From positions 32,001-96,000 of IMG/VR virus record IMGVR_UViG_3300049845_000291: DNA of 64,000 bases; one strand, 5' to 3'. Positions 7,565 through 61,850 of the stretch are shown here, in pieces. Below the pieces are notes generated by a model, which saw only the letters and a list, made by a program, of their open reading frames with translations, had not been told where the DNA came from and ran no database searches. Made by a program: the position numbers and the translations under genes. The stretch's first letter is position 1. Every line of letters begins with the position of its first letter. Origin of the DNA: a virus.

Positions 7565-7645
7565 ACCGGCGACACGAGGTGTCGCCGGTGGGCCTTAAAT
7601 TTCTAAGATGATAGGTACTGTGTCCGGCAGACCGGGTGTCGCCGG
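7565..7645. repeat. CCGGCGACAC element: hairpin plus an inverted single copy between convergent genes
   Basis: ACCGGCGACAC-GAG-GTGTCGCCGGT at 7565-7589; GTGTCGCCGG at 7636-7645. Confidence 0.85.
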
Positions 7646-7651
7646 CGTCGC

Positions 7652-8260
7652 CTAAAGCTCTTTGCCTGGCGTGTTGTTTCGACCGTCGGCGCTCACGAAG
7701 ATCTTCTCTACCGCGCCCCGAATCAGACCACCAGCCTGCGCAAACAGGCCCTGCTTGAGCTCGTCGATGAGCTCCTTGTTCTTGTACAGGTCGCTGGAGC
7801 GCATGCCGCCGGTTAGCTTCAGGTGCACAGGAATCGGATCATCACCGAGCACGCGCTTGATCATGCGCATCCGGCCGCGGCCTTCATGGCCGGTGACCTT
7901 TGGCAGGCTCTCACCCTTCTGATCGAACCGAATGTCGAGGAACGGAATGCCAACAGCGTACCCTTGCTTGACGACGAGCTCTTCGAGCTCGTACGACGTC
8001 GGTTCCTGGTGGCCCTCATCGTCGAGGGCCAGCTTCAGGAACGTGCTCGGTTTCATGAGCGCCACAGCACCCTCGTGCCAGATGTTACCGTTCAACGGCA
8101 CGGATCCTAGGCCCTTACGGGCCGAGAAGGTGATGGGGCCGATCTGGTACTCGAACTCGGCCACGGCTGGAGACCAGGCTGGAGCGTTCTCGAACTTCTC
8201 CGCGTAGATCTTGCGTGGCTCGTTCTCGGCCAGAAAGGATTTGAAGGTGATGTGCCGCAT
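7652..8260 (-). CDS. Late protein with a ParB/sulfiredoxin-like motif and a putative head-targeting N-terminus
   Basis: VTGHEGRGRM resembles the ParB-N GxxR motif. N-terminus ITFKSFLAE. TAAATA lies 4 nt upstream of the ATG. Confidence 0.5.
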   Translation of the reverse strand: MRHITFKSFLAENEPRKIYAEKFENAPAWSPAVAEFEYQIGPITFSARKGLGSVPLNGNIWHEGAVALMKPSTFLKLALDDEGHQEPTSYELEELVVKQGYAVGIPFLDIRFDQKGESLPKVTGHEGRGRMRMIKRVLGDDPIPVHLKLTGGMRSSDLYKNKELIDELKQGLFAQAGGLIRGAVEKIFVSADGRNNTPGKEL

Positions 8261-8469
8261 CAAGTATTTATGAGACGGGCTCTGAACTGGGCTCGGGGCC
8301 GATGCTCGTACGAGCGGTCCATGGCCTGCCAGCTCCTACAGAACGGCTTGACGACAACCTCGACAAGCGGGTCCTTCAGCAGCTCGAGCGCGTTCTGCTG
8401 GCAGATCGGGACCCAGCCGCCGGCCTTCAGCCGCAGCCTGACTCTGGCGATGGAGTCAGGCTCACGCAT
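8260..8469 (-). CDS. Hypothetical protein
   Basis: 69-aa ORF coupled to the LexA-like gene. Confidence 0.45.
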   Translation of the reverse strand: MREPDSIARVRLRLKAGGWVPICQQNALELLKDPLVEVVVKPFCRSWQAMDRSYEHRPRAQFRARLINT

Positions 8470-8705
8470 CAGAGCACTGGCCCGAGGGCCATGGCCAGGC
8501 CTCGCGTGGTCGGCGTGACGTTTCGCTTGTGGTGCGGCACGCGCTTCACGGCGCCATGATCTTCCAGACGATCCAGCAGCAGGTGCACGCTCGGGCCGGT
8601 GATGCCGAGCTCGGCGCCGAGCTCCTCACGAGTGGGCGAGTGTCCGTGCACGACCATGAAGGCCACGAGATGCTTCAGGCAGTTCAGCTGTTGGGGGGTG
8701 ACCAT
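8469..8705 (-). CDS. LexA-like winged-helix DNA-binding protein without the peptidase domain
   Basis: TPQQLNCLKHL...HGHSPTREELGAELGITGPSVHLLLDRLEDHGAVKR matches the LexA N-terminal domain pattern. Confidence 0.75.
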   Translation of the reverse strand: MVTPQQLNCLKHLVAFMVVHGHSPTREELGAELGITGPSVHLLLDRLEDHGAVKRVPHHKRNVTPTTRGLAMALGPVL

Positions 8706-8706
8706 C

Positions 8707-9015
8707 TTAGGCTCCTTCGGAGTTCAGAACTTCCATGATGTCGGGAATCTGCTCGCTGAGCTCGAACAGACCTTGCGGCAGCTCGGTCACAGGCGTGACC
8801 TGCTCTCCTTGGACGCGGAACCGATGGAGCTCGGTGCTCAGGCGGCGGGAGGGCAGCTCGACGACGTACGTGATGTAGAACTGGTGCTTGGCCGCATCGT
8901 ACCACAGTCCGTCGACGTGGCCGTCCAGCGCCACGAGCGGTGAGGTGCCGATGAACTTGCCGACCTGACGCACCGCGTCTTCGGCATCGATCAGCAGCTC
9001 CTTGAGTTGCCCCAT
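8707..9015 (-). CDS. Hypothetical protein
   Basis: Probable start MGQLKELL at 9015 with GGAG RBS. Confidence 0.55.
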   Translation of the reverse strand: MGQLKELLIDAEDAVRQVGKFIGTSPLVALDGHVDGLWYDAAKHQFYITYVVELPSRRLSTELHRFRVQGEQVTPVTELPQGLFELSEQIPDIMEVLNSEGA

Positions 9016-9043
9016 TGTGCTCTCCGTGACTAGGATGAATGGA

Positions 9044-9084
9044 ATTCTATCCAGTCTAGAGGACAGAGTGTAACGCGTTACACT
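9044..9084 (-). promoter_or_regulatory. GTTACA-N19-TAGAAT promoter with an 18-bp perfect palindrome
   Basis: AGTGTAACGCGTTACACT at 9067-9084; -10 hexamer TAGAAT at 9044-9049. Confidence 0.7.
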
Positions 9085-9713
9085 TCTGCCAGGAACCACT
9101 CCTGATACGTGCCCGGGAAGGACATGGGGTCATACGACCAAGCGGCACCCTCTGGTGTCGTGAGCTTCGTGGTCAACAGGATCTGTTCCATGGAGCCAAA
9201 CATCACGTGGCTCAGTGCATGGACGAAGTGCGGCGTGGCTGGGAAGAACACCGCCATACCACGAACCGGCGTCAGGCTGAAATCGTACGCTGGGAATTCA
9301 AGCTTCGCACCGTACACCTCGAACCGTGGGTCAAGAGGTACGGATGAGTTGAAGTCCTTGAGCCAGAGGAAGCCGACCAGATCGATGTCTCGAACCTTAT
9401 GCCACTTCTTTCTGGAATACATCCAGCCTTGGGCACCGATTGGTTCAGCGGGCTTCTTCGGATCTTCCCAGTACTGTTGGAACATGCCATTCCAGTCGAG
9501 CACTCGAGAACCGTACCGTTCTTCAATAGCTTGGCGATGAGGTGCGAGCGCACCTCGAATCATCGTCAGCTCGGCTGGTGGCAGCAGTCTTTCGTACTTG
9601 AGAGGACGACCGTCTTCGTCAAGACTCGGCTTCAGCAACCCAAGTTCCTTGATCAGCTGCTCGCAGCGGAGCGGGCTGATCAAGTCCTCAATTACGTGGA
9701 ATGGTGAGTGCAT
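9078..9713 (-). CDS. 2OG-Fe(II) oxygenase-fold protein, apparently degenerate
   Basis: FEVYGAKLEFP...PVRGMAVFFPATPHFVHALSHV resembles the prolyl-4-hydroxylase-type C-terminus. No HxD motif is visible. Confidence 0.55.
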   Translation of the reverse strand: MHSPFHVIEDLISPLRCEQLIKELGLLKPSLDEDGRPLKYERLLPPAELTMIRGALAPHRQAIEERYGSRVLDWNGMFQQYWEDPKKPAEPIGAQGWMYSRKKWHKVRDIDLVGFLWLKDFNSSVPLDPRFEVYGAKLEFPAYDFSLTPVRGMAVFFPATPHFVHALSHVMFGSMEQILLTTKLTTPEGAAWSYDPMSFPGTYQEWFLAEV

Positions 9714-10299
9714 TGGCGGTTTGGAGCTCTTCAAACACGCCGCGGTCAAGCTTCAGGAGTGGGGTCTCGCCAGCCTCTGTGACGCGCACCGTCACGAACT
9801 TTGCAAGATCGCCGAGCTGGACCTGAACGTCGTGTTCAAGGTTCTGGGTATCGCCGGGCCAGAACGAGAAGTGCGTCTCGTTTAGCGCGTACGCTGTTTT
9901 CTTACCGACCATCAGGCCGTTTGGCGTCAGTTCGTTGAGTCCCTCAGTGAGCTCGACCTTGACACGTTCGCCATCTACGACAATGAACAGCTCCTCTGAG
10001 AACTTAGACCACTCTGGGTGAGGATCATCAGCAGGGGGCGGTTCTTTCCTGATCTTGTCATCTGCCTTTGGGGCATCATCCTTCGGTGCTTCGGGCTCTT
10101 CCTTCGGAGCCTCGTCCTTTGGGGCCTCAGGCTCCTTCGGCGGTTCATCGTCTTCACCGGCAAGGGCGCCAAGAAATTCAACCAAACGGGCGGTCTTTGT
10201 GTTCAGGACCCGAACGTCAAGGCCTTCATCTTTGAAGATCTCCACTGCCTTGTTGATGGCTGGAGATTTCTCGTAGCACATGATCACGACTGGATGCAT
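9688..10299 (-). CDS. Hypothetical late protein with an acidic/Pro-rich linker
   Basis: 203-aa ORF with EPEAPKD repeats. Confidence 0.6.
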   Translation of the reverse strand: MHPVVIMCYEKSPAINKAVEIFKDEGLDVRVLNTKTARLVEFLGALAGEDDEPPKEPEAPKDEAPKEEPEAPKDDAPKADDKIRKEPPPADDPHPEWSKFSEELFIVVDGERVKVELTEGLNELTPNGLMVGKKTAYALNETHFSFWPGDTQNLEHDVQVQLGDLAKFVTVRVTEAGETPLLKLDRGVFEELQTANALTIPRN

Positions 10300-10300
10300 G

Positions 10301-10882
10301 TCAGTCCTCCATCGTCACGCGAGTGATCTTTGGGTTCGTCATCTTTGGGGCGTGCTTCACCATGAAGACGTGGCGTGCATGCGCTTTGTCCTTGACAGCC
10401 TTGATCTTTACCTGCCCAGTTGCGCGCTGTTTCATGTTGCCTTCAGGATCAGCCTTCTTAGCAGATTCGCTCTCGTCGTCGCAGCTGTACAGCACCGTTG
10501 CCGTTTTGTTTCCAGCAGATTCGGTCAGCCCAGCCATCTCACGGGCGCGGCGGGCCGCATAGAACTCATCCATCTCCTTGGCCACGACAGTTGGATCCTC
10601 TCCCTCAAGGACCTGCACAGGCGCCATGGTTTCAGCCTGCAGCGCGAGCTTGCACTTGTCCATGGCAATGCGCTTCACGATCTTGTATGTGCTCTGGGCG
10701 TATGTCACGGGGTCAGTGATGCAGACACACAACACCAAGTCCGCCATGACCATTGGGTCATTTGGTTGGGAGCTTACTGCTGGTTGGCTGTCAATCCAAA
10801 CTGAGATGTGTGAACAAGATGAGGTGTCAACATCAGCTGGCACCTGCACCGCTGCAGTCAGGTCGTATGAATCGGGGTACAT
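10301..10882 (-). CDS. Hypothetical late protein, putative internal head protein
   Basis: TAAATA at 10903, AAGGAG RBS and a REMAGLTE motif. Confidence 0.6.
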   Translation of the reverse strand: MYPDSYDLTAAVQVPADVDTSSCSHISVWIDSQPAVSSQPNDPMVMADLVLCVCITDPVTYAQSTYKIVKRIAMDKCKLALQAETMAPVQVLEGEDPTVVAKEMDEFYAARRAREMAGLTESAGNKTATVLYSCDDESESAKKADPEGNMKQRATGQVKIKAVKDKAHARHVFMVKHAPKMTNPKITRVTMED

Positions 10883-10905
10883 TGCTGCTCCTTTTTGAGG
10901 ACTAT

Positions 10906-12194: not shown

Positions 12195-12555
12195 GATACC
12201 AGACTTTCGTGAGACCGTTCAGGAACGACAAGATGTCCTTGCTCGTATCACCGATGCTGCCACAATAGATGTCATTCTTCTGACCTTGGACAACCGCCAT
12301 CCACTCATTCGTCCAGGTGAAGCGAACAACATCGCCTTTTTTGGTCCGAACGTCAAGATGGTTCTTGCGGCGCTCGCTCGTAACTGACTCGATCGCCTTG
12401 TTTGCGCGAAGCTCATCTGCTGTCTTCGCAATGCGATCTTTCATCTGCCGCTGAGCAATGTACTCTCGATCGGACTGTTCAACGTCAGCAGCGCGAGCTG
12501 CCTTGGACATGCCCTGCCCAAGAACGCGCGCCTCAGATAGCTCGCTGAACTTCAT
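12166..12555 (-). CDS. Putative internal head protein
   Basis: N-terminus MKFSELSEA resembles a T4 capsid-targeting sequence. Confidence 0.55.
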   Translation of the reverse strand: MKFSELSEARVLGQGMSKAARAADVEQSDREYIAQRQMKDRIAKTADELRANKAIESVTSERRKNHLDVRTKKGDVVRFTWTNEWMAVVQGQKNDIYCGSIGDTSKDILSFLNGLTKVWYREHDEHFDS

Positions 12556-14795
12556 CAGTTCCTCCAGCCCTTTGGGCGACCGCCAGTTTTGAGCTTGGTG
12601 GTCCTCAGCATGTTTGCGTACTCCAAGGCAGCCTTGTAGCCTTCCTTCGAGTTCTCAAAGTACCTGGAATGCAGCGCCCCGTCGAATGGACCGTCAATGC
12701 CGACACGCAAGGTCTTCATCCCCGTAGCATCAGGATCAACACCAAGTGCGAGAACTGTCTCCTCGTGCGTATCATCACCGACGTGTGTGGCCATCATGGC
12801 TGGGCCGGCCGCCGGCTCAAACATGTTCAGGTACTTCAGGTCGCTATCTGTGAGCGCTGAAAGCTCGCTGAAGGCCTCATTCAGGTTCTCGTTCTTTTGG
12901 CCTGGTTGAACGCGGGTGAAGGTACGATTTGGCTCGTTTTCCTCATTCAGGGCGGTCAGCAGATTCTTCATCTTCTGCATCACCAGTGCCTTGTTCTTGA
13001 GCGACTGGCGCTTTTCACGAAGGGACTTGATCAGATTGGCTTCTTGGAAATCCAGGTGCTTGGCTGGAATACCAAGGGCAACAAAGATAGCCTCAACCAT
13101 GTTGAGGTACGGATCTGCACCAACGTTCAGGTCACCATCACCTTCAGCCAGCGGCTTACCAGCGCGCTGAAGTCCGGCCATGATTGGCTCGTTCACGTCA
13201 TCAGTCTTGATGCCCATGCGTTGCGCCAGCACGATCATCGCACGGCGTAGCTCGTCATTCGTGCCGATGAGCTTGGCGGCACGCAGCAGAGCCGGAGCAG
13301 CCGGGCCTGGACCTTCAGTGCTGACGACTTCGGCTGGAAGCCCGAGCTTGATCAGGATGGTCTCGAACATCTTCTGGATCGCCGCACCGCGCTTTGGCAC
13401 CGCACGCTCGGCCTCAAGGGCGTACCCCTTGACGGTGGCCATCATGTTGTAGAACTTGTTGAAGGCTGTCAGGACTGACCTCTCCTTGCGAAGCATGTCG
13501 CCGGCCGCTTGAACAGCTTCCTTGACGCCATCAACGTTCACGAAACGGCCAGGGATACCAGTCATCGCGTAGAACGCGACAAGCTTCTTGTCAATGGCAC
13601 GTGGCAGCTGAGCAACCAGCGCCATGTACTGCTTGTCCATCGGGATAGCCATGCCATCCTTCACCGAGTCGCGGTCAACAACCGGAGCTTTTGCTTCCAG
13701 CACGCGCGACAGAAAGTTTGCACCAATTGTCATGTCAACTCCTTGAACACGGAACTTGATCTCGTCCGTTGATTTCTGTTCAGCCATCAGTTCAGCAGCT
13801 TGTCGGCTTGCGAACATTCCCGGCATGTATCCCAGTGCGCGACCTTCGGCAATCGCCTCAAGCACGAACTCACCTTCACCTGATTTAGCAAGCTTGGCGA
13901 GCTGGCTAAGGCCTTCTTCCGTTTGGACAGGCTCCTTCTTCTTTTTCTTCTTGATCACGTTCCCATTCTCGTCTTTCTTGGGATTTCCGTCATCATCGAG
14001 TTCGACCTCTTCGTCTTCCTCACCAGCATCGCCTTCAGCATCGCCTTCAGCATCGCCTTCAGCATCGCCTTCAGCATCGCCTTCAGCATCGCCTTCAGCA
14101 TCGCCTTCAGCATCGCCTTCAGCATCGCCTTCAGCATCGCCTTCAGCATCGCCTTCAGCATCATGACTCGAACCATTTGGGGGCGCTTCATCAGCACCTG
14201 CGGCCAAATCGTTCTCGACCTCACCAGCTGTCGGCTCATCGGCTGAAGTTGTAGGTTGATCCGAAGTATCCTCTGGAGCAGGCTCGTCATCTGCAGCCAG
14301 GGCTGGTTCTGATTCCTCGTCACCAAAGAGCTCGTCAAAGTCGCTGTCGATGGTCAGATCGTCTTCAGATCCCTCTGGGTCGCTTGGCCAAACAACGTCG
14401 ACGATCTCGAACTTCTGCGCAAGAGTCGCGATGGCTTCTTCTGGGTCACCTTCAATACCCAGTAGTTTCGACATTTCAGCTTCGAACTCGTCAGCCTGGT
14501 CAGCACGCACATACACCTTGATGATGTCACCTTCAGGATCGGCAGGATCTTGCAGACCGAAAAGAATGGTGTCAACCTCATCGTTGATCTCAGCTGCACG
14601 CTCAAGATAGTTGTTGATGTCAGATCCTGACAGCTTGCCGTCAGAGTTCAAGACGTTGCGCATCATCGAGAATTGCACATCAACAGGCTTCGCGGAAACG
14701 TCACCACTACCCGCGTTAGAACCATCTGAGCTCTTGAGGTCAGCTTGGAAATTGCCTTTTGACGAGATACCCGCCAGCTCTTGAATCAACTTCAT
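12555..14795 (-). CDS. Large acidic late protein with (DAEG)11 repeat, putative processed internal head protein
   Basis: 746 aa, in an operon downstream of TAAATA, with several (L/I)xE sites. Confidence 0.65.
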   Translation of the reverse strand: MKLIQELAGISSKGNFQADLKSSDGSNAGSGDVSAKPVDVQFSMMRNVLNSDGKLSGSDINNYLERAAEINDEVDTILFGLQDPADPEGDIIKVYVRADQADEFEAEMSKLLGIEGDPEEAIATLAQKFEIVDVVWPSDPEGSEDDLTIDSDFDELFGDEESEPALAADDEPAPEDTSDQPTTSADEPTAGEVENDLAAGADEAPPNGSSHDAEGDAEGDAEGDAEGDAEGDAEGDAEGDAEGDAEGDAEGDAEGDAGEEDEEVELDDDGNPKKDENGNVIKKKKKKEPVQTEEGLSQLAKLAKSGEGEFVLEAIAEGRALGYMPGMFASRQAAELMAEQKSTDEIKFRVQGVDMTIGANFLSRVLEAKAPVVDRDSVKDGMAIPMDKQYMALVAQLPRAIDKKLVAFYAMTGIPGRFVNVDGVKEAVQAAGDMLRKERSVLTAFNKFYNMMATVKGYALEAERAVPKRGAAIQKMFETILIKLGLPAEVVSTEGPGPAAPALLRAAKLIGTNDELRRAMIVLAQRMGIKTDDVNEPIMAGLQRAGKPLAEGDGDLNVGADPYLNMVEAIFVALGIPAKHLDFQEANLIKSLREKRQSLKNKALVMQKMKNLLTALNEENEPNRTFTRVQPGQKNENLNEAFSELSALTDSDLKYLNMFEPAAGPAMMATHVGDDTHEETVLALGVDPDATGMKTLRVGIDGPFDGALHSRYFENSKEGYKAALEYANMLRTTKLKTGGRPKGWRN
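14024..14162. repeat. Perfect 12-bp tandem repeat (CAGCATCGCCTT), about 11.6 copies
   Basis: Read directly; encodes DAEG on the - strand. Confidence 0.97.
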
Positions 14796-17116: not shown

Positions 17117-17139
17117 GCCACTATTTAGGCCCGGATACC

Positions 17140-17168
17140 AAAGAAGGGGCCAATGGCCCCTTCTGTTT
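17140..17168 (-). terminator. Rho-independent terminator
   Basis: AGAAGGGGCC-ATT-GGCCCCTTCTTT on the - strand. Confidence 0.8.
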
Positions 17169-17182
17169 CATCCACCTCGATC

Positions 17183-20489: not shown

Positions 20490-20547
20490 ACGCCTCATTG
20501 TAACGTCAGGCGACGACAGGGCACCTCGGCTCTTGGGCTGATGAGCC

Positions 20548-20575
20548 AAACACAAAGGGGACCCGAAGGTCCCCT
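20548..20575 (-). terminator. Rho-independent terminator
   Basis: AGGGGACC-TTCG-GGTCCCCT-TTGTGTTT. Confidence 0.85.
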
Positions 20576-20597
20576 GCGTTGTTCTGGTGTCACGAGC

Positions 20598-35722: not shown

Positions 35723-35723
35723 C

Positions 35724-35780
35724 CCGGCGACACCAGACAGCACCGAGGGGCCCTAGGGCCCCTCGTCTGTTTGGCTCAAC
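35724..35780 (+). terminator. CCGGCGACACCAG motif plus terminator hairpin
   Basis: CGAGGGGCCC-TA-GGGCCCCTCG at 35744-35765, followed by TCTGTTT. Confidence 0.7.
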
Positions 35781-35784
35781 ACCT

Positions 35785-35961
35785 TTACGGTTTTGGTGTC
35801 ACCGGTGGCACCATGTCAATCAGCTCGGCTGGCACCGTGTCGAGCTCTTGAATGTCGGCGCCGGTCGTCAGCTCGATCGAGCTGTCCATGTACGTGTATC
35901 TCTCCTCGGACTGGCGAGGTTGACGCAGCAGCGAGTTTGCCCAGGACTTGATGTCGCTCAC
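35785..35961 (-). CDS. Small hypothetical protein
   Basis: GTG start (MSDIKSWAN) with GGAGAGG RBS and GTGA overlap. Confidence 0.45.
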   Translation of the reverse strand: MSDIKSWANSLLRQPRQSEERYTYMDSSIELTTGADIQELDTVPAELIDMVPPVTPKP

Positions 35962-36283: not shown

Positions 36284-36333
36284 ATCATACACCGCTTACG
36301 GCTTGAACTTGTAACGCGTTACAACTCTAAATA
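36284..36333. promoter_or_regulatory. Back-to-back promoters around a 16-bp palindrome
   Basis: TTGTAACGCGTTACAA at 36309-36324; leftward TATGAT at 36284-36289; rightward TAAATA at 36328-36333. Confidence 0.75.
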
Positions 36334-36357
36334 GTTCGTCCGTCTAGGAGCCAGATC

Positions 36358-38602: not shown

Positions 38603-38631
38603 AGCTCCAGAATCGGGTGCCCTGTCGTCGC

Positions 38632-38644
38632 CTGGTGTCGCCGG
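38632..38644 (-). repeat. CCGGCGACACCAG element
   Basis: Starts 3 nt after the stop of 38648..39154. Confidence 0.8.
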
Positions 38645-38647: not shown

Positions 38648-39154
38648 TCAGCGTGCCGACATTGCTCGGCTGACTGGGCCACCGGACTTCGATTCGGAGA
38701 CCTTGGGCGCGACGCCGACGCCGCGAACCTTGAGGCGCTTGGCGGGGAGGAAGCGTTGCGCCGCCTCTTGTGGCTTGTCCTTGTTGGCCTTGGTCTCGAC
38801 GGCGAAGTACACGCAGCCGTTGATGAACGTGGTCTTACTGACCACGTGCCCACGAAAGCCCGAGACCACGTCTTCGACCTCGGCGCCGAGTTGAATGCCT
38901 ATGTCGTCGGCTGGAACCGCCTCGATCGGTTGGAAGTCCTTGTACCCGGGGATCTTCTTGGGATCTGCGATCTCGACGATCTGGATCTCGTCGATGTTGT
39001 ACCCATCGGGGTACTTGCCGTCCTTGAAGTCTGTGCCACGAGGCTGGAGCGCGAACTGCGTCATGCCGCCGATGTAGTCGATGCGCTGCGTGACGACGCC
39101 GATGTAGCCGCTGACGACGTCTCGGCACAGGGTTCCGAGTTTGATGGAGCTCAT
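38648..39154 (-). CDS. Hypothetical protein with an internal two-domain duplication
   Basis: IKLGTLCRDVVSGYIGVV and IQLGAEVEDVVSGFRGHV. Confidence 0.7.
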   Translation of the reverse strand: MSSIKLGTLCRDVVSGYIGVVTQRIDYIGGMTQFALQPRGTDFKDGKYPDGYNIDEIQIVEIADPKKIPGYKDFQPIEAVPADDIGIQLGAEVEDVVSGFRGHVVSKTTFINGCVYFAVETKANKDKPQEAAQRFLPAKRLKVRGVGVAPKVSESKSGGPVSRAMSAR

Positions 39155-39239
39155 TGCTGGTCCTCGTGTGAAGCCCCAAGCGGGGCGGTTAAGGGGTTCT
39201 TGGACTGGGAGCGCTGCGGCTGTCTGGAGCGGTAGGCCA

Positions 39240-39671
39240 TCACGCGGGGCGCAGCGTCAGACCGCGGCGGCGCGCGATTTCGTTGATCTGCTCAATGCTG
39301 AGCGCCTGCGCGACCAACATCGGCTTGCGGGCGCGCAGATCTTCACAGGCCTCGCGCCACTGCTGCTCGCCGTACCTGGCGCGGCACGACGCGTCGAAGT
39401 ATGGGTCGCCAGCCGTGATGTTCCCGGGATCGGCGTACGGGGGCGCGGCGATGAACTTGCGCGCGTCGTCCTCGAGCTGCGACCAGCCCTTCTCGCTGAC
39501 CTTCAGCTGGTTGTACCTCGCCATCGCCGCGACCGCGTCGCGGCGAGCGTCCATGATGTTGATGGTCGGTCCTTTGATCTGCATGCCATCGTGACCACCG
39601 GTTGCAGCCAGCAGGGCCAACAGCGCCGTGTACAGCTCGTCGGCGACGCTCGGTTGAGCTTGCGTGTTCAT
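39240..39671 (-). CDS. Hypothetical protein
   Basis: Start MNTQAQ with AGGAG RBS. Confidence 0.6.
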   Translation of the reverse strand: MNTQAQPSVADELYTALLALLAATGGHDGMQIKGPTINIMDARRDAVAAMARYNQLKVSEKGWSQLEDDARKFIAAPPYADPGNITAGDPYFDASCRARYGEQQWREACEDLRARKPMLVAQALSIEQINEIARRRGLTLRPA

Positions 39672-39701
39672 GTGAGGGCTCCTATGTGGACGTGCTGTTG
39701 A

Positions 39702-39730
39702 TGTCGCCGGCGACACGAGGTGTCGCCGGC
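39702..39730. repeat. CCGGCGACAC hairpin element
   Basis: GCCGGCGACAC-GAG-GTGTCGCCGGC; the core is identical to 7566-7588. Confidence 0.9.
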
Positions 39731-39738
39731 TCGGTGCT

Positions 39739-40740
39739 TCAGCTGTTCACCATGGCGTACAGACCGATGCGGCGCCACGTGTCGGGCTTGTTCACGCGGG
39801 CCTTGACCACGTTCACCAACGAGCGCAGGTTCAGCTCCTGCACCATCGGGTTGTTCGCGTTCTCGGCCACGAACTCGAGCGCCTCGAGCTTGGCGTCCAT
39901 GTCGAACTCGGGCATGAACTCCTCGGACTGCACGATCACACGCATGCGCTCGATGACCTCATCGCGCGTCATGCTCACGTCGGCGCACATGGCACGGGAG
40001 CGGATGGCCTGCGGAACCTTGTGCTTCGGCATGTTCGAGATGAACACGACACCACCTTCGAACTCGAAGGTCTTGGGCAGGTCCTCGTCGCCCCAGCCTT
40101 CGGCGTTCCAGGTCACGATGCGCGTGTCGTAGCTGTCGAGCGCCGCCTTCAGGATGTTCACGGCGTTCGGATCCTTCAGGATCGAGTCGCAGTCGTCGAA
40201 CACGCAGATCTGACGGCGGTTCTCGTACAGCGTGCGGAACAGACCCTTGGCCGTGCTGTACCCCTTGACCACGACGTAACCGCGCTGGCCGTCGAACTTC
40301 GCGCCGATCTCCATCTTGGAGATGTCCTTCAGGCCGCTCTTGCGCAAGGTCTTCATGACCGTGAAGGACTTGCCGAGACCACCTTCGCCCGTCACCAGGG
40401 CCGAGGCCATCTGGTAATGCGCGACCATGTCGACGTAGTCGCTCATGATCTCGAAGCGCTCGTTGATCGGGAACTCGTCCTCGACCGACGGTACCGGCTC
40501 GGTCGGCTCGGTGGCAGCGGCGCTCGGAGCGCCTTCGACCGAGGGGGCCTTGCCGATGACCTCGAGCTTGGTGATGCCGTAGTTCTTGGCCTTCTGGCTG
40601 AAGCCGCCTTCGATCACGCGGCGCAGGTAGTCGGGACCACCGACGGGATCGCGATTCGAGGCGAGGACCTTGCCGTCGGCGGCGCGCGCTTCCCAGCGGC
40701 CCATCGAGTCGTTCCAAACGGCGGTGCAGGTCTTGCTCAT
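39739..40740 (-). CDS. P-loop (AAA-like) ATPase
   Basis: GEGGLGKS, CVFDDCDS, FISN, AIRSRA. Start MSKTC with GGAG RBS. Confidence 0.8.
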   Translation of the reverse strand: MSKTCTAVWNDSMGRWEARAADGKVLASNRDPVGGPDYLRRVIEGGFSQKAKNYGITKLEVIGKAPSVEGAPSAAATEPTEPVPSVEDEFPINERFEIMSDYVDMVAHYQMASALVTGEGGLGKSFTVMKTLRKSGLKDISKMEIGAKFDGQRGYVVVKGYSTAKGLFRTLYENRRQICVFDDCDSILKDPNAVNILKAALDSYDTRIVTWNAEGWGDEDLPKTFEFEGGVVFISNMPKHKVPQAIRSRAMCADVSMTRDEVIERMRVIVQSEEFMPEFDMDAKLEALEFVAENANNPMVQELNLRSLVNVVKARVNKPDTWRRIGLYAMVNS

Positions 40741-40839
40741 GTAAGTTCTCCAGGTCGACGTGATGATAGATGAATCATACGTCGGTTTCTGGCCAGAGAA
40801 CACCAGGTTTCTGTAACGGCGCTCTGAAAACTGTAACGA

Positions 40840-42102
40840 TCATTCGTACACCACGCGATCGATCGCGAACCAGCGCGAGTGGTACGGCACGTACGTCTGC
40901 CTGTACGGCGGCGTGAGCAGCCAGATCCAACGACCCGGCTTCGAAGGAACTACACGATTGCCCGCGCCATCGGTAATCACCACGACGCAGTCTGGGTAGC
41001 GCCGTTCCTTGGCAAGCTCGGTGCATTTCTGCTCGATGATGTGGAAGTACGTGCCACCACCGATGCCGAGCTTCTCACCGGTCTTGACCTCGTTGACGGA
41101 GGTATCGAACGCGAAGGTGCGAGTCTCGAACAGGTCCTCTTCCTCTTCGAATGCCTGGCGGATCCGACTGAAGTGCTCGATGTACTTCATACACGAGCCA
41201 GACACGTCGAAAAACACGGCGGCCAGCAGCTTGTCGGGATCGGGCTTGGACTCAACCCGGCCAGGCAACATCATGGTCGAGCTGCTCAGGCGGCGGTTCG
41301 TTCTAGCGAAGCTCTCTTGCTCCTTCTGGGCGCGTTTGCGAAGCTCGCTGCGCTTGAGACCGGCGACGATGTCCTTGAAGTTCACCTTCGGCGGGATGCG
41401 TCGCTCGAGCTCGATGTTGAAGGGCGACAGCGAGATCCCGCGGCCGCCTTCAGGCCCCATGTTCTTGATCATGGCCTGGAGCTCGTCCCAGGACAGGTCC
41501 TGAGCAAGCTGTCCTGCCAAGGCGTCGGGGTCGTTGTCGTCCGCGTACCCACCTTCGTCGGAGTCGTCGTGCTCATCGAGAGTTTGCACGCCCTCGGGGA
41601 CACCTTGCTCGATGAGCTTGCGCAGGTAGTACAAGAACACCTGATTGGGCTCGATCTGCTCGGGGTTCCTGAAGCAGGTCTCAATCCAGCAGTACTTGCT
41701 CCAGTCTCGCAGCAGACCACGAGGAAAGCTGAACAGGTTCACGATCATCTCGTTGATCGTGATGTCCTGCGCGATGTTCACGATTCGTGGAGTGGCGCCA
41801 GGGATGTGCCGTGCGTTTCGCACCCCGTGATCGAGCAAGACGTGCAAGCACTCGTGGATGATCACGAAGATCCGCTCATCCTCCTCGAGCGCGGCCCAGA
41901 ACGCCTCGCCAAGGATCATGTGTGACCGCCCACCGGGCGGGAAGGCCACGCAAGCGGTCTTGGTCTTCTTGCCGAAGTAGATCTCGGACAACGACCAGAA
42001 CGTGTCGAACACGCGGTGGTACTGCTCCAGTGATTGGCTGAGCTCGCGCTTCAGCTCCGCCGGGATCGGCCGGATCGTGGGTTCTGGCAGGTCCTTGAAC
42101 AT
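40840..42102 (-). CDS. Metallopeptidase-VWA domain protein (DUF2201-like)
   Basis: HECLH zincin motif, NIAQD, MIDAS DVSGS, GGGT, VITDG. Confidence 0.88.
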   Translation of the reverse strand: MFKDLPEPTIRPIPAELKRELSQSLEQYHRVFDTFWSLSEIYFGKKTKTACVAFPPGGRSHMILGEAFWAALEEDERIFVIIHECLHVLLDHGVRNARHIPGATPRIVNIAQDITINEMIVNLFSFPRGLLRDWSKYCWIETCFRNPEQIEPNQVFLYYLRKLIEQGVPEGVQTLDEHDDSDEGGYADDNDPDALAGQLAQDLSWDELQAMIKNMGPEGGRGISLSPFNIELERRIPPKVNFKDIVAGLKRSELRKRAQKEQESFARTNRRLSSSTMMLPGRVESKPDPDKLLAAVFFDVSGSCMKYIEHFSRIRQAFEEEEDLFETRTFAFDTSVNEVKTGEKLGIGGGTYFHIIEQKCTELAKERRYPDCVVVITDGAGNRVVPSKPGRWIWLLTPPYRQTYVPYHSRWFAIDRVVYE

Positions 42103-46333: not shown

Positions 46334-49300
46334 TTAGGTCACAGTCAAAGTCAAGGTGTAGTCAGTGAAGTCCGGGGTTGCAACGCTGTTGTTGTCCCAG
46401 TTCACGCGCAGGGTGAAGTTGTACGTGCCGACCGTGTTCACCGTTGAGTTGTTGGTGATCTTGACCCGGTTGGACGTGAACGCAACTGTAGAAGAAGCAC
46501 CGGAGTTCCAGTCGGCCAGCGACACCAACGACATGCCAGGCGGCAGCGAGCCGCTGACGACGCTGATCGCGGTAGCGCGCGGGTTAGACATGTTACCGGT
46601 GATCGATGAGGCCAGGTACACCGTTGCGGCACCCTGTGCGACCGTCGCCGTGGTAGTTCCAGCGCCGCTCGTTAGAGAACCAGAGTTGGCGTACCAGCGG
46701 AACTGGGCCGGGACTGTGCGTGGCTGAACGTTCAAAGTAAACGTGCCTGTGGTGGTTCCAACCGGGCTTGTTGCCTGGACCACCATGGTTCCGCCGTTCT
46801 GCGAAAGCGTGACCGCGGTCGTTGGCAATTGCGACAAGTTGAAGTTCGGCGCGGTGCCGGTCCACGTCATGCCGGCGATTGGTGTGCCGTTGATGGTGAC
46901 CGTCGCGGTTGGAGTCGTGGTGCTCGTGACCGCGATTGGGTCCACATGCGCCGCGATGTCTGGCTGCGGGGCGACCGTGACCGTTGTACCGCCGGCCAGA
47001 CGGAATGGTGCGCCAAGCACTGCTGGCGAGTTCACTGTCAGCGAACGGGTCGTGATGTTCGAACCAGCCGCGTTCGTGGCGCGCATGCGAATCGTGTACG
47101 TGCCAGGTGTGTAGTTCTGGACACGTGTATCGCCCCCAACACCAACTGCGTCGAATGAGCCGTCGTTCGTGTAGTCCCACTCGATCAGCGTTGGGCTGTT
47201 TGTTGAGGTATCGACCAGCGTGATGGCTGCTGGGTTGCCAGTTGCTGGGCTCGGCGTCACGGTGAAGCTGGCAACAGGTGCAGAGACTGGAGGCGGCGTC
47301 ACGGTGCCAATCACGAACTGCGTGGCGCTTGAACCAAGCTCGTCAGTCGAGGTGAAGGCCAATGGGGCTGGGTACAGTCGCAGACCAGCGCCATAGGTTG
47401 TCGAGTCGTCAATCCAACGCCAAGACACCGAGAACACACCAGTTGTGGCGCCGGTTGTTGAGACTCGGACGAACAGGTCAATTGAGTCGGGGCTCGAGCC
47501 GTTTGCGCCAATGTTACCTTGGATCGATACCGTGGCGGCACCGCTGGTCACCGTTTGCATGTCCGTCTTGGTGGTGCTCATGGTGGAGTACCCGCCATCA
47601 ATCACGCTCACCAAGGTTGGTGAGGCCGCCGTGCTCAAGTTGTACAGCGCGTCAAAGGTCAAACGCCAACGGCCCCTTGCTGAGCACAAGGCCACAAGAT
47701 CAGTGTCACTTGCGCCTGAACCGGTTGGGGCATGCGTCAAGAAGATCTCGATCGCCTGGCCAGAGGTGAAGAACCGCTGACGCTCGGCCGCGCTGAACCT
47801 AAAGCGAAGACCATTCTCGCGCAGCGTCGCAAGGCTGTTCGTCGTGGCGTCGATTGAGAACAGCTGGTGGTTTGTGATGCCGACACCTGGTGCGAAGTCA
47901 TCGTTGGTGCCACTGGTTCCGAGGATACCTCGGAGCTTATACCGGCTAGCGATCGCCGCACCAAGCACGTTCACGGTCTCTTGGTAGAACTGCAGCAGCG
48001 AAATTGATCCCCAACGCGTGCGTGAGTGCCGTTGTAGACGAGCTGCAAGTGGACTTGTGGTTGACACACGAGTGATCGGTGCCGGTGGCAGACCATCTTG
48101 AATGAACGGAAGCGGGCTGATGCGATCCAGCATGATCTCTGGGAGCTCATAGCGTGCGATCGCCCAGCGGCAGGCCGACAACAGCTTGTCCCAGTCCTGC
48201 GAGTTTGGATCAACGTCAAGGGTCCCAAGACTGTCGTCGCTGAGCTGGATCAGGACGTTCATGTCTTCTGGAATTGCCGCACGGTATGCACGGCGCAAGC
48301 TTGCGTCAAGTGTGTCGAACGGGGTCAAGAAATCGATGTATCGCCCAAAGGCGCCAGAACCGCCAAATCCAAATTGATCACCAATCAGGCGCATCAGTAG
48401 CCCGTTGATGTAGTCGTACTCACGGCGTCCGGCACCAAGATCGATTGGAGGGTACACCTGTTCCCAGCCACCGATCGCACCCTCTACCAACGTGCTAGGC
48501 ACCAGGAGCAAGTCATTCACAGGAAGCGCCGTGGTCCAGAGCGTGATCGAAGAGATGCCTGCTCCACCAGTGGCTTCCATCGTCGTCGACACGATTCTGC
48601 CGATAGCAAGGGTGCGTTCACCGGGTGTGGTGCCGGGCGTGAAGTCCACCCATGCGATGTTGTTGTCGTACTGCCAGCGGTCATCGGCCAAACGTCGAAC
48701 TGAGAAGAACCTCGAAGCTGCATCGCCGGTGGAGGTCATGAGCGCACCTCCCGATTCGTCCCAGACAAGGAAGCCGTCGTTAGGGAAGTTCGTCCAGAGT
48801 GCGCCGCGCGGAATTGTGATGGCGGTGCCAGTGCGCGAGTCAATGATGGAACCGTTCACGTCGGCTGGCGACGCGCCAGTGTAGCCACTGATGTACGCTT
48901 CGCTCATATTTGAGCCAACCGCGCCAGCAAACGTGCTGGTGTTCAGCTTGACGGCCAGCGTTGTGGTGTTTGCTGGTGGGTAGTACCCGGTGCTATCCCA
49001 CTGGATCTGTGGGTACCGACCGACGCCAGTGTAAACGTACAGCGTGCCTGAAGCCGAACCGGTCTTTGAAAACCAAGTGTCGCCGAGTGTCGCCGGAGAA
49101 GGGGGTGCAGCCCCAACCTCGGTGACCTGCATGCCGCCCACTGCCTTCCACGTCCGCGCCGTCGTCACGGGCGGCGAGCTGGTGCAGACCTTCATGACAC
49201 CGCTGCTCGTGTCGTACCAGATCTGGCCGACGGTGGCATTTGCCGGCTCAACGTTCGATGCGAAGTTCTCCAAGAGCCGCATCAGGTTCTCTTGCTGAAC

Positions 49301-51506: not shown

Positions 51507-51542
51507 CGCGCTATTTGTCAGCTAATGCCTGTATTCGGTGCG

Positions 51543-53711: not shown

Positions 53712-53751
53712 GAGGCGCATTGTACGCCGCAAAGAGCACGAACTTGTAACG

Positions 53752-55690: not shown

Positions 55691-55694
55691 GTGA

Positions 55695-58273: not shown

Positions 58274-58298
58274 TCACAATCTCTTCAGGTGCTGTTCA

Positions 58299-59633
58299 TT
58301 AGAACGCGGCGATAGCTGAGATTCGCTGGGCCTTGACGTCAACGGCTGCGGTTGATTGGACGTTCAGCACAAGCGAACCACCCGACAGCGTAACAGTCGC
58401 TTGGAACCCAGTGATGTTTCCACCGCGGGTGAGAGCGGCAAAGATCGTCGAATCAACGCTGGTACCATTGTGCATCGCGAAGACCTTGAAGGAACGGATG
58501 CGGGTTGGGGTGGCGGTTTCACGAACGTAGACATCCCACTCGGCAGCAACTGCAGCAACGGTATCGACCGCAGAGATCGAGGTGACGTTGGTCAGCGTGG
58601 TGGTCAGGCTGGTAGCCGCGATGGCTGCGTCAAGCTTGCCAACAGCTGCGGTGACACTGTCGCCATCAACGATGTAGTTGTTGGTGCTGTAGTCAGGAGT
58701 GCCAACCCCGGCGGTCTTACCGAGATAATCGTTGATCGAGGCAACTTCACCATCTAGCGCAGTAACGTTCTGGTTGACGGTGTTGGCTGCAAGAATGACT
58801 TCGCCGTTTGCAACGGTACCGCCGATCTCAGCATCGAGCTTACCAATGGCAACTTCAAGGTTGTCACCGTCAGCGACGATGTTGACCGAGCTGTAGTCTG
58901 GCAGCTCGTTGCCAGCACCAGTCTTGCCCATGAAGGCATTGGCAAATGCCGATTCAGCATCAAGCTTACCAATGCCAGTTTCCAGGCTGTCGCTATTGGC
59001 AACTACTGTGGTGCTGGTGTAGGTTGGGAGCTCGTTACCTGGACCATCTTTACCGATGAAGGCGCGAATGAAGGCGTCCTCGTCAGAGGCGGAGCCCTGA
59101 ATCCAGATCCAGTCCGTACCGTCGTACTGGTAAGTCTTGCCAGCGTCAACACCGCCAACAACGTAGGTGGTGTCACCAGAAGATTCTGGGTTCAAGTCTT
59201 CTGTGAGAGTCCAGTTGCCAGACGTGCCGCTGACAACGAAGATGTTCTTGTTGCCGGTGACGCTTGCGCCAAGGATCCGCATACCGAGCGTGACTGGAAC
59301 GCCCTGGATCAGGTCATCGGCGTCAAGATCGGCCTTCAGGCTCGCGACATCGGTTGCCGTCGTGTCGATGACCGAAACCGGTTCACGCCAGGAAAGACCC
59401 GAAGACGCAACTGTGTTGACATAGTCCTCAGTTGCAATCTTCTTCCACTTGTCAGTGCCGACACCAGCGGCAACCTTCATGTAAAGGTCGCCGGAGGTGG
59501 TATCCGTGAAGTACGAACCGCGTGGGGCGGTGGAAGTATCACCGGAAGCGCCTGGAGCGCCTGCGCCGGTGAGGAATTGCGCTGCTTCATCGAGCTCAAG
59601 GCCACGATAAATGCGGAAGAAATCTGCTGCCAT
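58299..59633 (-). CDS. Virion structural / fibre-like protein with internal repeats
   Basis: Three to four P-x-Y-S...GKLDA repeats; TAAATA at 59671 and AGGAG RBS. Confidence 0.7.
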   Translation of the reverse strand: MAADFFRIYRGLELDEAAQFLTGAGAPGASGDTSTAPRGSYFTDTTSGDLYMKVAAGVGTDKWKKIATEDYVNTVASSGLSWREPVSVIDTTATDVASLKADLDADDLIQGVPVTLGMRILGASVTGNKNIFVVSGTSGNWTLTEDLNPESSGDTTYVVGGVDAGKTYQYDGTDWIWIQGSASDEDAFIRAFIGKDGPGNELPTYTSTTVVANSDSLETGIGKLDAESAFANAFMGKTGAGNELPDYSSVNIVADGDNLEVAIGKLDAEIGGTVANGEVILAANTVNQNVTALDGEVASINDYLGKTAGVGTPDYSTNNYIVDGDSVTAAVGKLDAAIAATSLTTTLTNVTSISAVDTVAAVAAEWDVYVRETATPTRIRSFKVFAMHNGTSVDSTIFAALTRGGNITGFQATVTLSGGSLVLNVQSTAAVDVKAQRISAIAAF

Positions 59634-59677
59634 AGTGTGTCTCCTACTGGATCCTAAGGATCAATGCCTCTATTTAG

Positions 59678-60388
59678 TCAATGTTGAATGCGGGTGACAG
59701 TAACTTCGACGTCGAATGCCTCGTCGTTCTGCCAAACCAGTCTGATCTTTTTTAGGGCCGTGTCCAACACAATGCTGGCCGTTCCCAAAAACCGGTCGCC
59801 AACTCGCGAGCTGACATTCCAAGTTCCTGATTCAAGGTCATTCAACAAGTCACCGCGGACATTGCATAGAACCTCGAAGGTTGTTGAGTTGAAGTTCGAC
59901 GGCGCATACAGCGTCACGAAGAACTTGAAGCCGCGTTTTGTCGAGCTGTAATCAGCTTCATCGACGATCGCGGTCTGTGCGCCAAGTACGGTACTTGTTG
60001 ATGTTCCACCGGGCACGTCTCCAGCACCAGTCGAAACAGGCAGCTGCATTGCGCGCTGCATCGTCTCGGCTGTGACGCGATGGTCGACAAGCGTCTCATT
60101 TCCAACGGCGCTGGACCAAGCTTGCGCCGTTGTCCCTTCCATTCCACGATCTGAAAGGCTAAAGTACAGCGTATCGCCAACGCGCTGCGTGACCTTGATG
60201 ATCTCACGGGTGGTGGCCGCCTGGTCTTCAAGCGTGACTAGGAAGTACTCGCCAGGCCCTGGATTTGGGAACAGCGCACCATACCCCGCCATCACCGTCA
60301 ATGACGTTGAAGTCGCGCTAATAGGTGCGGTCAGGAGGCTGACCGCGTTGTTCGAAAACAGCTGAACCTCTGAAAGCGATACTGGCAT
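59678..60388 (-). CDS. Virion structural protein
   Basis: FSNNAVSLL...EIIKVT...RGMEGTTA tail-associated motif. Confidence 0.65.
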   Translation of the reverse strand: MPVSLSEVQLFSNNAVSLLTAPISATSTSLTVMAGYGALFPNPGPGEYFLVTLEDQAATTREIIKVTQRVGDTLYFSLSDRGMEGTTAQAWSSAVGNETLVDHRVTAETMQRAMQLPVSTGAGDVPGGTSTSTVLGAQTAIVDEADYSSTKRGFKFFVTLYAPSNFNSTTFEVLCNVRGDLLNDLESGTWNVSSRVGDRFLGTASIVLDTALKKIRLVWQNDEAFDVEVTVTRIQH

Positions 60389-60588
60389 TATGCTCTCACT
60401 TTTCCTTGGTGTTCAGCAAGAACCTGTAGGAATCGCTGCTTCGACATCGTCGAATCAACTGCTTCCTTAAAGGCATCGACCTGATCAAGAGGCACCAGCA
60501 CCTCTAAACGATCGATCCCATGTTGAATCTTAAAGACTCGAAATGGCCTTTTACTTAGCGTGTTGTTTAGGTCCGCGATGAGCTTCAT
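60388..60588 (-). CDS. Small hypothetical protein
   Basis: Coupled ORF. Confidence 0.5.
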   Translation of the reverse strand: MKLIADLNNTLSKRPFRVFKIQHGIDRLEVLVPLDQVDAFKEAVDSTMSKQRFLQVLAEHQGKVRA

Positions 60589-61046
60589 CGAGCCCCCAAG
60601 TACTCAGCGTAAGTGGAAAGTACCGCGCGAATGGAATGTCCACGCCCAGATGGTGACTCGATCTGCGTGACCTGCTTCAGCGGCAGAGTTTTCAGGTCCC
60701 CAGCCTCATCTTCGCCATGCACCTGAAGCCCTTCGGCTAGCCTGGTCTTGACGAGCTTGTAAGCTTTGAGGCGGATCTTGAGCTGCCCGAAGAACACAAT
60801 GTCGTCAGGCTGCGGAAGGTGAACCTTGCGCGAGAAGGCACCGACTGTTTCAAAGGCCCCACCATCAGGGTGAACAGGGGTCTTATTGATCCCGATGATG
60901 TCCTTGAAGGACACCGCCAAAGGCTCGGGGCCGTCCTGCTCTACGAAGACGGCTGGACTAGCACGGTACGGTGCGTACGATAGAACGCGCAAGACTTTCT
61001 TGTCTCGCGTCGTGATCGTGTCATTTTTGATTGGAACGACGAGCAT
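60585..61046 (-). CDS. Hypothetical late protein
   Basis: TAAATA at 61067. Confidence 0.6.
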   Translation of the reverse strand: MLVVPIKNDTITTRDKKVLRVLSYAPYRASPAVFVEQDGPEPLAVSFKDIIGINKTPVHPDGGAFETVGAFSRKVHLPQPDDIVFFGQLKIRLKAYKLVKTRLAEGLQVHGEDEAGDLKTLPLKQVTQIESPSGRGHSIRAVLSTYAEYLGAR

Positions 61047-61083
61047 GCTAACCTAGGTCCTTCCTGTATTTACAGGTGCTAGG

Positions 61084-61257
61084 CTATTTCACGTTCAGCT
61101 CGTCGTCGTCATCCTTAAGGTCATCGAGCTCCTCTTCGAGTAGCTCTTCCTCTAGATCGCGCAGGTACTGCTTAAATGAAGCACGTCGCTTGCGCGCACC
61201 TTCATCAAAAACCTTGTCCTTTTTCTTGCGACTACGTGTGTCGACGTGGCTTCCCAT
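61084..61257 (-). CDS. 57-aa basic/acidic bipartite protein (not in ORF track)
   Basis: MGSHVDTRSRKKKDKVFDEGARKRRASFKQYLRDLEEELLEEELDDLKDDDDELNVK; TAAATA at 61285. Confidence 0.55.
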   Translation of the reverse strand: MGSHVDTRSRKKKDKVFDEGARKRRASFKQYLRDLEEELLEEELDDLKDDDDELNVK

Positions 61258-61283
61258 TCCCAACCTGCATGTTACGAGGCTCC

Positions 61284-61763
61284 TTATTTATCGCCTTCAG
61301 CAGGTGTACGGGTGTCCAGCACCCAAAGAGTGCTGTCAGGAAGGTAGCGTGAGATCAGGGCGCTGACAACCTGCCAGTCAGCGCCGCCCAGGCCGCAGCC
61401 GATTAGTGGGTGATGGCAATCAGCAGAGGTAAGGCTCAAACCTTGCAGCTGCCAGGCCAGGGTGGCAAGTGCTTCATCGAGGGCGTCGTACGACGTGTAC
61501 CGACGCTTCTCGCGGCCGTAATACCGCTGACCGAACAGGTTCGCCACGTAAAGATCGGGAGTTACCTTCAAGACCTGAACCAGACCAAGCAGCTCATGGT
61601 CTGAAAAGAGCTTGCAGCGCTCCTCGTACCGCTCCCAGACAATGGGGTACTTGGCGCGCAGCTCCTTTGCAATCCCGGAGGCCATGACTCCCTGGCAGTT
61701 CACCTGGTGCATGATGACGCCTTTGGTGACGCCTGTAACGAGATTGCCGTTCACGATCTTCAT
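61284..61763 (-). CDS. Macrodomain protein (Appr-1''-p / ADP-ribose processing)
   Basis: HQVNCQGVMASGIA, VANLFGQ, PLIGCGLGGADW. Confidence 0.92.
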   Translation of the reverse strand: MKIVNGNLVTGVTKGVIMHQVNCQGVMASGIAKELRAKYPIVWERYEERCKLFSDHELLGLVQVLKVTPDLYVANLFGQRYYGREKRRYTSYDALDEALATLAWQLQGLSLTSADCHHPLIGCGLGGADWQVVSALISRYLPDSTLWVLDTRTPAEGDK

Positions 61764-61803
61764 GGCGACGACCGGTGCATCCGGTCTCCTTGGTGGTTGG
61801 TAC

Positions 61804-61850
61804 TGTGTCGGTAGCGATTCGGTGTCACCGGCGTCGTCTGGTGTCGTCGG
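61804..61850 (-). repeat. Cluster of degenerate CCGGCGACAC motifs
   Basis: CCGACGACACCAG...CCGGTGACAC...CCGACAC, starting immediately after the stop of 61851..62300. Confidence 0.65.

Follow-up and report, generated by a model that had tools for sequence, protein, structure and literature searches.

What does a short GC-rich word do when it recurs directly past the stop codons of unrelated genes? The question is raised by a 64,000-nt stretch of virus DNA, called the window here, which covers bases 32001–96000 of a 152,208-bp virus contig with a GC content of 0.57 (IMG/VR record IMGVR_UViG_3300049845_000291; the contig is labelled G000). A sequence-only reading of the window had picked out the 10-mer CCGGCGACAC, followed by CAG, after several stop codons, and had proposed a phage-specific cis element that could serve in RNA processing, in termination or antitermination, or in recombination. 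The 10-mer is not free-standing: it is the core of two inverted arms of intergenic cassettes of ~85 bp. Judged by comparison with related genomes, the arm is conserved far better than the surrounding genes, and it is probably read by something. The cassettes may be boundary modules at the ends of transcription units, read by sequence, with arms that would bind a factor specific to the clade; this is the reading that we favour, although we hold it with some reserve.

The repeated word and the cassettes that carry it

In the window, CCGGCGACAC occurs exactly eight times where 0.26 copies were expected, a number reached by none of 100 dinucleotide shuffles, and 19 times when up to one mismatch is accepted (7.4 expected); the whole 152,208-bp contig holds 12 exact copies, with a density of about one per 12 kb. 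Placement was assessed against our own crude gene calls on the contig (150 genes, 93% coding). Ten of the 40 contig matches with at most one mismatch begin 0–15 nt past a stop codon on the same strand, against 0.32 expected (binomial p about 7e-13), and with intergenic DNA alone as the null, 10 of 12 lie past a stop where 1.3 would be expected (p about 9e-9). Chance or base composition as the source of the motif is ruled out by the shuffles together with the post-stop enrichment. The core 9-mer is the top enriched word in intergenic DNA, both in G000, whose roughly 8 kb of such DNA hold 8 of its 15 copies, and in a related phage genome, G004 (21 of 29); for the core in G004, about 25 of 29 copies are intergenic. 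Sorted by junction type, arms are found in G000 at three of five convergent, four of 56 co-directional and none of six divergent junctions.

The offsets and coordinates that had been claimed for copies of the 10-mer after stop codons all hold, and so do the identical 23-nt hairpins at 7566–7588 and 39707–39729, the degenerate copy after 20598 and the copy just within the 3′ end of the open reading frame (ORF) at 35785. The accompanying claim that copies lie in the sense orientation after stops is borne out in the contig, where all intergenic copies are sense or members of an inverted pair and one exact copy lies antisense within a baseplate gene outside the window, but it fails as a strict rule: in co-directional gaps of G004 the 8-mer is sense 11 times and antisense 6 times, and one orthologous cassette is inverted. 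Sense orientation arises largely because inverted arms point inward at gene ends.

Four cassettes share a common asymmetric layout of about 85 bp (alignment A1), two of them in the window (B, 7565–7652; D, 35723–35806) and two outside it (A and C, contig 12970–13058 and 131006–131088); in relatives the length is about 100–115 bp. First comes the L arm, in which GGCGAC(AC) units, numbering one to three, are phased at 10 bp; CAG follows the 10-mer, which in some cases recurs 10 bp further along. Next, 0–10 nt past the L arm, stands a GC-rich hairpin whose tail is of the TCTGTT type, and past the tail are about 28 nt that hold a GACACAGTACC-type stretch on the opposite strand, then the inverted R arm, which has the form CCGGYGACACC then CGG. 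Central hairpins with T-rich tails are present in cassettes A, C and D and at 20556–20575, and are missing from cassettes B and E. Each inward-pointing arm lies, on the sense strand, directly 3′ of the stop codon that closes the adjoining gene. Within G000 the arms are alike and the cassette interiors differ, as alignment A1 makes plain. A terminator or a convergent gene comes directly next at 6 of 11 G000 sites, and the DNA past the cassettes varies, holding a late-type CTAAATA box, a ribosome site or a convergent gene. Other arrangements exist as well, namely arm hairpins that pair with themselves (7566–7588, 39707–39729) and tandem pairs without a partner (38621–38644; contig 98649–98677). 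The elements had been described as not ordinary terminators, which is correct for the two self-paired copies, as they lack a U-rich tail (there is no U-tract at 39707–39729 and only UUCUG, on the minus strand, at 7566–7588), whereas most copies flank GC hairpins with T-rich tails.

The RNA folds of cassettes C and D nest the terminator stem within an outer stem of paired arms, with z scores of −4 to −5 against shuffles. In this fold the CCAGACAG-type stretch after the core pairs with the terminator tail; the CAG noticed earlier belongs to that stretch, which explains why it trails the 10-mer. Folds that pair the L and R arms around a terminator hairpin would also be expected if structure were all that mattered and the arms were simply the outer stem of a nested RNA hairpin. 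Transcripts stopped at the inner terminator would then lack the 3′ arm, and those that read through would form the long stem and be cut by host RNase III or stabilized at their 3′ ends, which would amount to a fail-safe of the lambda sib/tI or T7 early RNase III kind. We consider this explanation unlikely. A C-to-T difference between the two arms in cassettes C and D cuts both ways, giving a G-U pair in the minus-strand RNA but a C-A mismatch in the plus-strand RNA. Tandem direct units cannot pair, and the tandem site at 38621–38644 is unstructured, its fold being no stabler than shuffles (z +1.55). A phage RNase III was not found by family search.

The individual sites in the window illustrate the range of these arrangements. 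Cassette B (7565..7652, both strands) occupies a convergent gene junction and consists of an L arm, an AT-rich near-palindromic centre and an inverted R arm, with RNA folds at z −2.5 (plus) and −3.1 (minus). Its L arm (7566..7588, plus) consists of two copies of the 10-mer in inverted orientation, which fold on each other into a 10-bp stem with a 3-nt loop; the arm begins 7 nt past the stop of 6662..7558. The R arm of B, of the CCGGCGACACCCGG type (7632..7645, minus), begins 6 nt past the stop of the minus-strand gene 7652..8263. Between this arm and the centre is an inner sub-element of the GACACAGTACC type (7610..7627, minus), which holds a TAGGTACT core and recurs in cassettes A, C and E and at a further locus, L090. 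An operon end on the minus strand (20536..20597) carries a degenerate L arm, GTGACACCAG, with the hairpin at 20556–20575 and a T-rich tail (fold z −2.8). Cassette D (35723..35806, both strands) comprises an L core at 35724–35733 (plus), a hairpin at 35744–35765, a tail and an R core at 35796–35805 (minus); its hairpin was ranked first in its region by a terminator scan and its folds reach z −4.8 and −5.0.

The other sites lie on the minus strand. Tandem units 10 bp apart, without a hairpin, begin 3 nt past the stop of 38648..39154 (38621..38644). The self-paired arm hairpin at 39707..39729 stands between a co-directional gene pair; it lies 9 nt past the 39739..40803 stop, and the next gene starts about 35 nt further on. 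Cassette E (61764..61850), also between co-directional genes, has three units (cores 61841–61850, 61822–61831), the inner sub-element and an inverted arm, without a central hairpin. The inverted arm of E overlaps a 6-codon mini-ORF at 61760–61780 and the start of 61284..61763. This mini-ORF, on the minus strand, has its own Shine-Dalgarno sequence, and its stop overlaps the ATG of the phosphatase-like gene 61284..61763 (ATGA), an arrangement that suggests translational coupling through the arm. Two tandem exact or near-exact copies 10 bp apart (49077..49096) lie within an ORF for a 1052-aa virion protein, where their membership in the family is uncertain; the phasing of these coding copies equals that of the intergenic arms.

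Conservation of the arm in related phages

Matches to PHROG and Pfam give the contig, whose completeness is 43% by CheckV, the gene set of a T4-superfamily myovirus. They include a T4-type DNA polymerase, a baseplate wedge, long tail fibres of 1000–3400 aa, topoisomerase II, RNA ligase and thymidylate synthase. The contig is part of an uncultured T4-superfamily jumbo phage. The nearest named phages by DNA polymerase are jumbo phages, with Ralstonia phage RsoM2USA (46% identity) ahead of Xanthomonas phage XacN1 and others. A topoisomerase II search of IMG/VR returned relatives of 290–340 kb at 59–80% identity, labelled G001 to G005, of which G004 is complete (342,591 bp, with terminal repeats; proteins about 50–60% identical to those of G000), and a 161-kb fragment, G008 (GC 0.49), was added through a motif scan. 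The motif-bearing relatives span GC contents of 0.45–0.57 and about 50–80% protein identity.

Comparison with these relatives extended the arm to 17–32 nt. The 17-mer arm is present three times in G000, once in G002, 10 times in G004 and 15 times in G008, and a reversed control was found in none of them. A 22-mer of G004, one copy of which is also present in the G000 contig, consists of two GGCGAC units 10 bp apart, and G004 also holds a 25-mer near-identical to the tandem site at 38621–38644. In G008 a nested palindrome of ~115 bp with 32-nt arms recurs at least 14 times, its copies being about 90% alike, and in some of them the interior (core AAGTTATGCATAACTT) or the 6-nt loop is inverted between the repeats. 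Arrays in this fragment (L089:1400–3000, L079:580–1520) are made of ~445-bp units, each with the second conserved box described below and the ~115-bp nested palindrome; they also hold 107-bp and 12–13-bp tandem repeats, and contain no ORF of more than 70 aa. G000-type cassettes are found at locus L090, a 20.7-kb contig with a GC content of 0.573.

Beyond this group the element was not encountered. The motif is not enriched in RsoM2USA, XacN1, G003 or G007, the exact 23-nt hairpin had no match in IMG/VR, and megablast of 20 kb against phage records gave no match. The 22-mer had no match in 185,579 prokaryote species (one genome each), and a metagenome scan with it matched a single contig. Rfam 15 gave no match at gathering score for the window and three G004 loci, and none at E ≤0.1 for three G008 loci; ARAGORN found no tRNA. 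A host repeat or the end of an insertion sequence is ruled out by the absence from prokaryote genomes, and a known RNA family or tRNA remnant was set aside on the Rfam and ARAGORN results. Limited to the clade, tied to gene ends, without a match in Rfam and with its 22-mer absent from all the prokaryote genomes searched, the element merits the name of a phage-specific cis element that it had been given.

Within the clade, the element is kept at five orthologous junctions in at least two genomes. After the phrog_1250 gene (39739..40803), a hairpin with a GGCGAC...GTCGCC stem base is present in G000, G001, G002 and G004 and absent from G003 and G005; its apical pairs and loops differ among the four genomes, and the genes downstream differ in every genome. 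A cassette precedes the gene for a 2830-aa structural protein in G000, G002 and G004, with a strong L-type arm that is sense in G000 and antisense in G002 and G004. Cassettes C and D have counterparts past orthologous genes in G004, and D also in G005. The operon end after gene 40 (G000 20536–20597) carries the arm in both G000 and G005, but the two hairpins are entirely different; in G000 the module is preceded by one additional small gene. That these sites are kept implies that they are old and that the hairpin is under less constraint than the arm, and their pattern implies that the module marks the end of a unit and not one particular gene.

These comparisons bear on whether structure alone could account for the arms. 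Self-paired arms between co-directional genes that are orthologous in four genomes, with differing apical pairs, are in keeping with a conserved stem, but compensatory drift would then be expected, and the arm sequence is near-invariant across very different GC contents. The main ground for favouring a sequence reader is that an element read by its structure only would be expected to drift, like the central hairpins, yet the arm shows no such drift even at GC 0.45.

Possible functions of the cassettes

In the favoured reading, the hairpin and tail of the cassettes would end transcription units in both directions, and a candidate clade-specific factor would read the arms either in the nascent RNA or in the DNA just upstream of the hairpin. 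Such a factor may assist or regulate termination or 3′-end formation, which would make the cassette a protein-assisted terminator or an insulator. The 10-bp phasing of the units and their fixed place just upstream of the hairpin appear to fit a bound factor, and TRAP, HutP and N/nut serve as models for an arm-bound RNA factor in that position. It is possible, if doubtful, that the GGCGAC(AC) units form a platform for a clade factor that sets unit boundaries, acting as an RNA-binding terminator or antiterminator or as a polar DNA roadblock. Among the three functions offered by the sequence-only reading, a site for a termination-related factor seems to fit best, and RNA processing and recombination sites seem to fit less well. 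We know of no protein-assisted terminator factor in T4-type jumbo phages.

Several observations weigh against boundary modules read by a factor. Tandem copies without a hairpin (38621–38644; contig 98649–98677) and self-hairpin copies defy a single geometry, orientation in G004 is mixed, and some contig terminators lack arms. The amplification in G008, in apparently non-coding arrays every ~450 bp, is not explained by a plain operon-end signal. Gene conversion, in a recombination-proficient T4-type phage, could keep copies identical without any reader. A candidate factor was not found: searches for the MotA C-terminal domain, RegA and RNase III families detected none of them (two controls were silent), and the sole nearby small DNA-binding gene (LexA-type, 8469..8705) is not conserved in G004 and G005. 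This minus-strand gene encodes a 78-aa protein that matches a LexA DNA-binding domain (E 1.7e-9), and BLAST found no homologue of it in G004 or G005.

The cassettes could alternatively act on DNA, as a dispersed operator or polar roadblock in the way of the stoperators of mycobacteriophage L5, or as a self-recognition tag that, like the uptake sequences of Neisseria and Haemophilus, is tolerated only in intergenic DNA and for that reason gathers as inverted pairs in terminators. The units lie 10 bp apart, which is one helical turn, they occur in direct and inverted arrangements, and the copies are dispersed at about one per 12 kb; uptake sequences are known to occur as inverted pairs in terminators (PMC1852404). 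We regard a site of this kind as quite unlikely, as no binding protein was identified, the nearby LexA-type gene has no homologue in G004 and G005, the phage, a lytic virus of the T4 type, gives no hint of an immunity repressor, and the constant position directly upstream of hairpins is more than mere tolerance would need.

Recombination offers another explanation, in which the arms are homology or ends for spread, inversion and gene shuffling of a mobile cassette and regulation is secondary. The cassettes have terminal inverted repeats around a unit of about 85–115 bp, G008 holds its at least 14 copies about 90% alike, some with an inverted interior or loop, the cassette ahead of the 2830-aa gene runs in G002 and G004 opposite to that of G000, and the neighbours downstream of the phrog_1250 hairpin differ in every genome. 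Promoter-early stem-loop (PeSL) elements have moreover been described as composite terminator/promoter motifs at indel boundaries (PMC4122927). We nevertheless judge this explanation rather unlikely. In a test for elements of the MITE or Correia kind, the inverted arms were present but no target-site duplication flanked the cassettes, and an inverted pair of arms at insertion-sequence distance was not found in a cursory look at G004. G000 cassettes are alike in their arms only and not in their interiors, and several sites are orthologous in distant genomes and so old and stable.

Nor were recombination breakpoints at the motif, which had been suspected from the earlier comparison with gene cassettes, evident at the gene level: lineage-specific neighbours lie at 6 of 8 motif junctions and at 79 of 141 others (Fisher p 0.25), in a comparison among relatives too divergent to reveal breakpoints. 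The search for a relative close enough to map breakpoints at the nucleotide level gave none, and the loci L087 and L074 are the same phage (99.98% identical, no indel). The hairpin after 39739..40803 begins a three-gene stretch (39155–42102) that has no counterpart between orthologous flanks in G005, and an HNH endonuclease gene (40840..42102) lies just upstream.

A role as promoter or 5′ leader of the downstream gene, for example as the box of a middle-mode activator, is very improbable. GCGACA/GTGACA does resemble a −35 hexamer, the arm often trails a second conserved box at a fixed distance in G004 and G008, and some G004 copies lie in divergent gaps. Yet 6 of 11 G000 sites directly precede a terminator or a convergent gene, no −10 element stands at a fixed distance, a promoter scan finds none at the cassettes, and arms are present in none of the six divergent gaps of G000. 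In G005 the upstream box abuts terminator hairpins, which leaves no room for a transcript, and the MotA C-terminal domain was not found (its control was silent). An N4-type hairpin promoter, a T7-type promoter or a class II signal was also considered and rejected, the giant ORFs being tail fibres and not a virion RNA polymerase; a search for the single-subunit RNA polymerase family gave no match (control silent). Complementarity of the arm to helix 34 of 16S rRNA was considered and dropped since the motif core does not match. A Rho loading site was rejected as well; although C-rich, unstructured tandem sites exist, G and C are equally frequent in the commonest arm.

The second conserved box is a repeated signal in its own right. 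It is about 21–45 nt long, begins GGCATTAG and ends ATAGCG, and has three copies in the contig, at window 51509–51529 (minus), contig 39007 (plus, window 7007) and contig 111861 (plus, outside the window), and 11 each in G004 and G005. Copies lie past stop codons and directly before terminator hairpins, and stand a fixed few bases before the L arm in G004 and G008. A promoter role for the box was rejected because it abuts terminator hairpins in G005. A long bidirectional terminator palindrome, with a GC hairpin, a CCCTAGGG centre and flanks AAACAGA/TCTGTTT and GAGCC/GGCTC, is common nearly letter for letter to G000 (35744–35783), G004 (123600–123680) and many sites in G005, where 10 copies of its 9-mer are all intergenic. 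The sequence CTAAATA(G/C), found about 15–30 nt before many starts (e.g., 10883–10905, 17117–17182, 36293–36357), looks like the T4-type late promoter of the clade, and the words TCGTTACAAT and GGTACAAT before other genes look like host-type early promoters.

Relation to described elements and significance

We found no description of the arm element. By analogy, the nearest described kind is the PeSL cassette, reported from T4-type phages (Arbiol et al. 2010, PMC2839356; Comeau et al. 2014, PMC4122927). Both are repeated, sequence-conserved intergenic cassettes of the T4 superfamily built around a terminator stem-loop, with a sequence specific to a phage subgroup. The PeSL joins its stem-loop to a strong sigma-70-type early promoter, whereas the unit described here includes no promoter, the scan having found no sigma-70 early promoter at any cassette; the conserved part is here the inverted GC-rich arms outside the hairpin, and the cassettes are also found at the ends of late genes and at convergent junctions.

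Other likenesses are more partial. Nested-hairpin 3′ elements are exemplified by the lambda sib/tI retroregulator and the T7 early RNase III sites. Like the cassettes, they place a nested hairpin just past a stop codon: inside is a terminator or an upper stem, and around it an outer stem that can form in longer transcripts only. Recognition of those elements depends on structure, and they occur as single copies or are loosely conserved, whereas the outer arms described here are conserved in sequence across distant genomes. The stoperators of cluster A mycobacteriophages, reportedly described by Brown and colleagues in 1997 as the sites of L5 gp71, are likewise short and asymmetric, number a dozen or more per genome and lie in short gaps near stops, and the orientation with transcription is matched in the contig. 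Each stoperator, however, is a solitary 13-bp site to which a temperate phage's immunity repressor binds, and the units here are tandem or inverted around terminator hairpins in a lytic T4-type phage, with mixed orientation in relatives. The bacterial DNA uptake sequences (DUS/USS), such as those of Neisseria and Haemophilus, and the REP/BIME repeats are also short words enriched just past genes, often as inverted pairs that form or flank terminator-like hairpins. They are elements of bacterial chromosomes, in contrast to an arm whose 22-mer is absent from 185,579 prokaryote genomes and which is limited to a small phage clade.

Terminators are normally read by their shape and not by their sequence. 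Here a GC-rich arm of 17–22 bases beside a terminator is near-invariant at 50–80% protein identity and GC contents of 0.45–0.57, with the hairpin free to change. If a factor reads the arm, the cassettes would offer a new handle on how giant T4-like phages split a genome of ~340 kb into transcription units and on how convergent early and late transcription are kept apart, and they would provide a compact, portable and possibly switchable insulator part. If the arms are instead kept by recombination between copies, they would add to the examples of genome plasticity driven by cassettes, as has been proposed for T4-type phages. Under either reading, the cassettes are exact landmarks for the annotation of operon ends in an uncultured clade.

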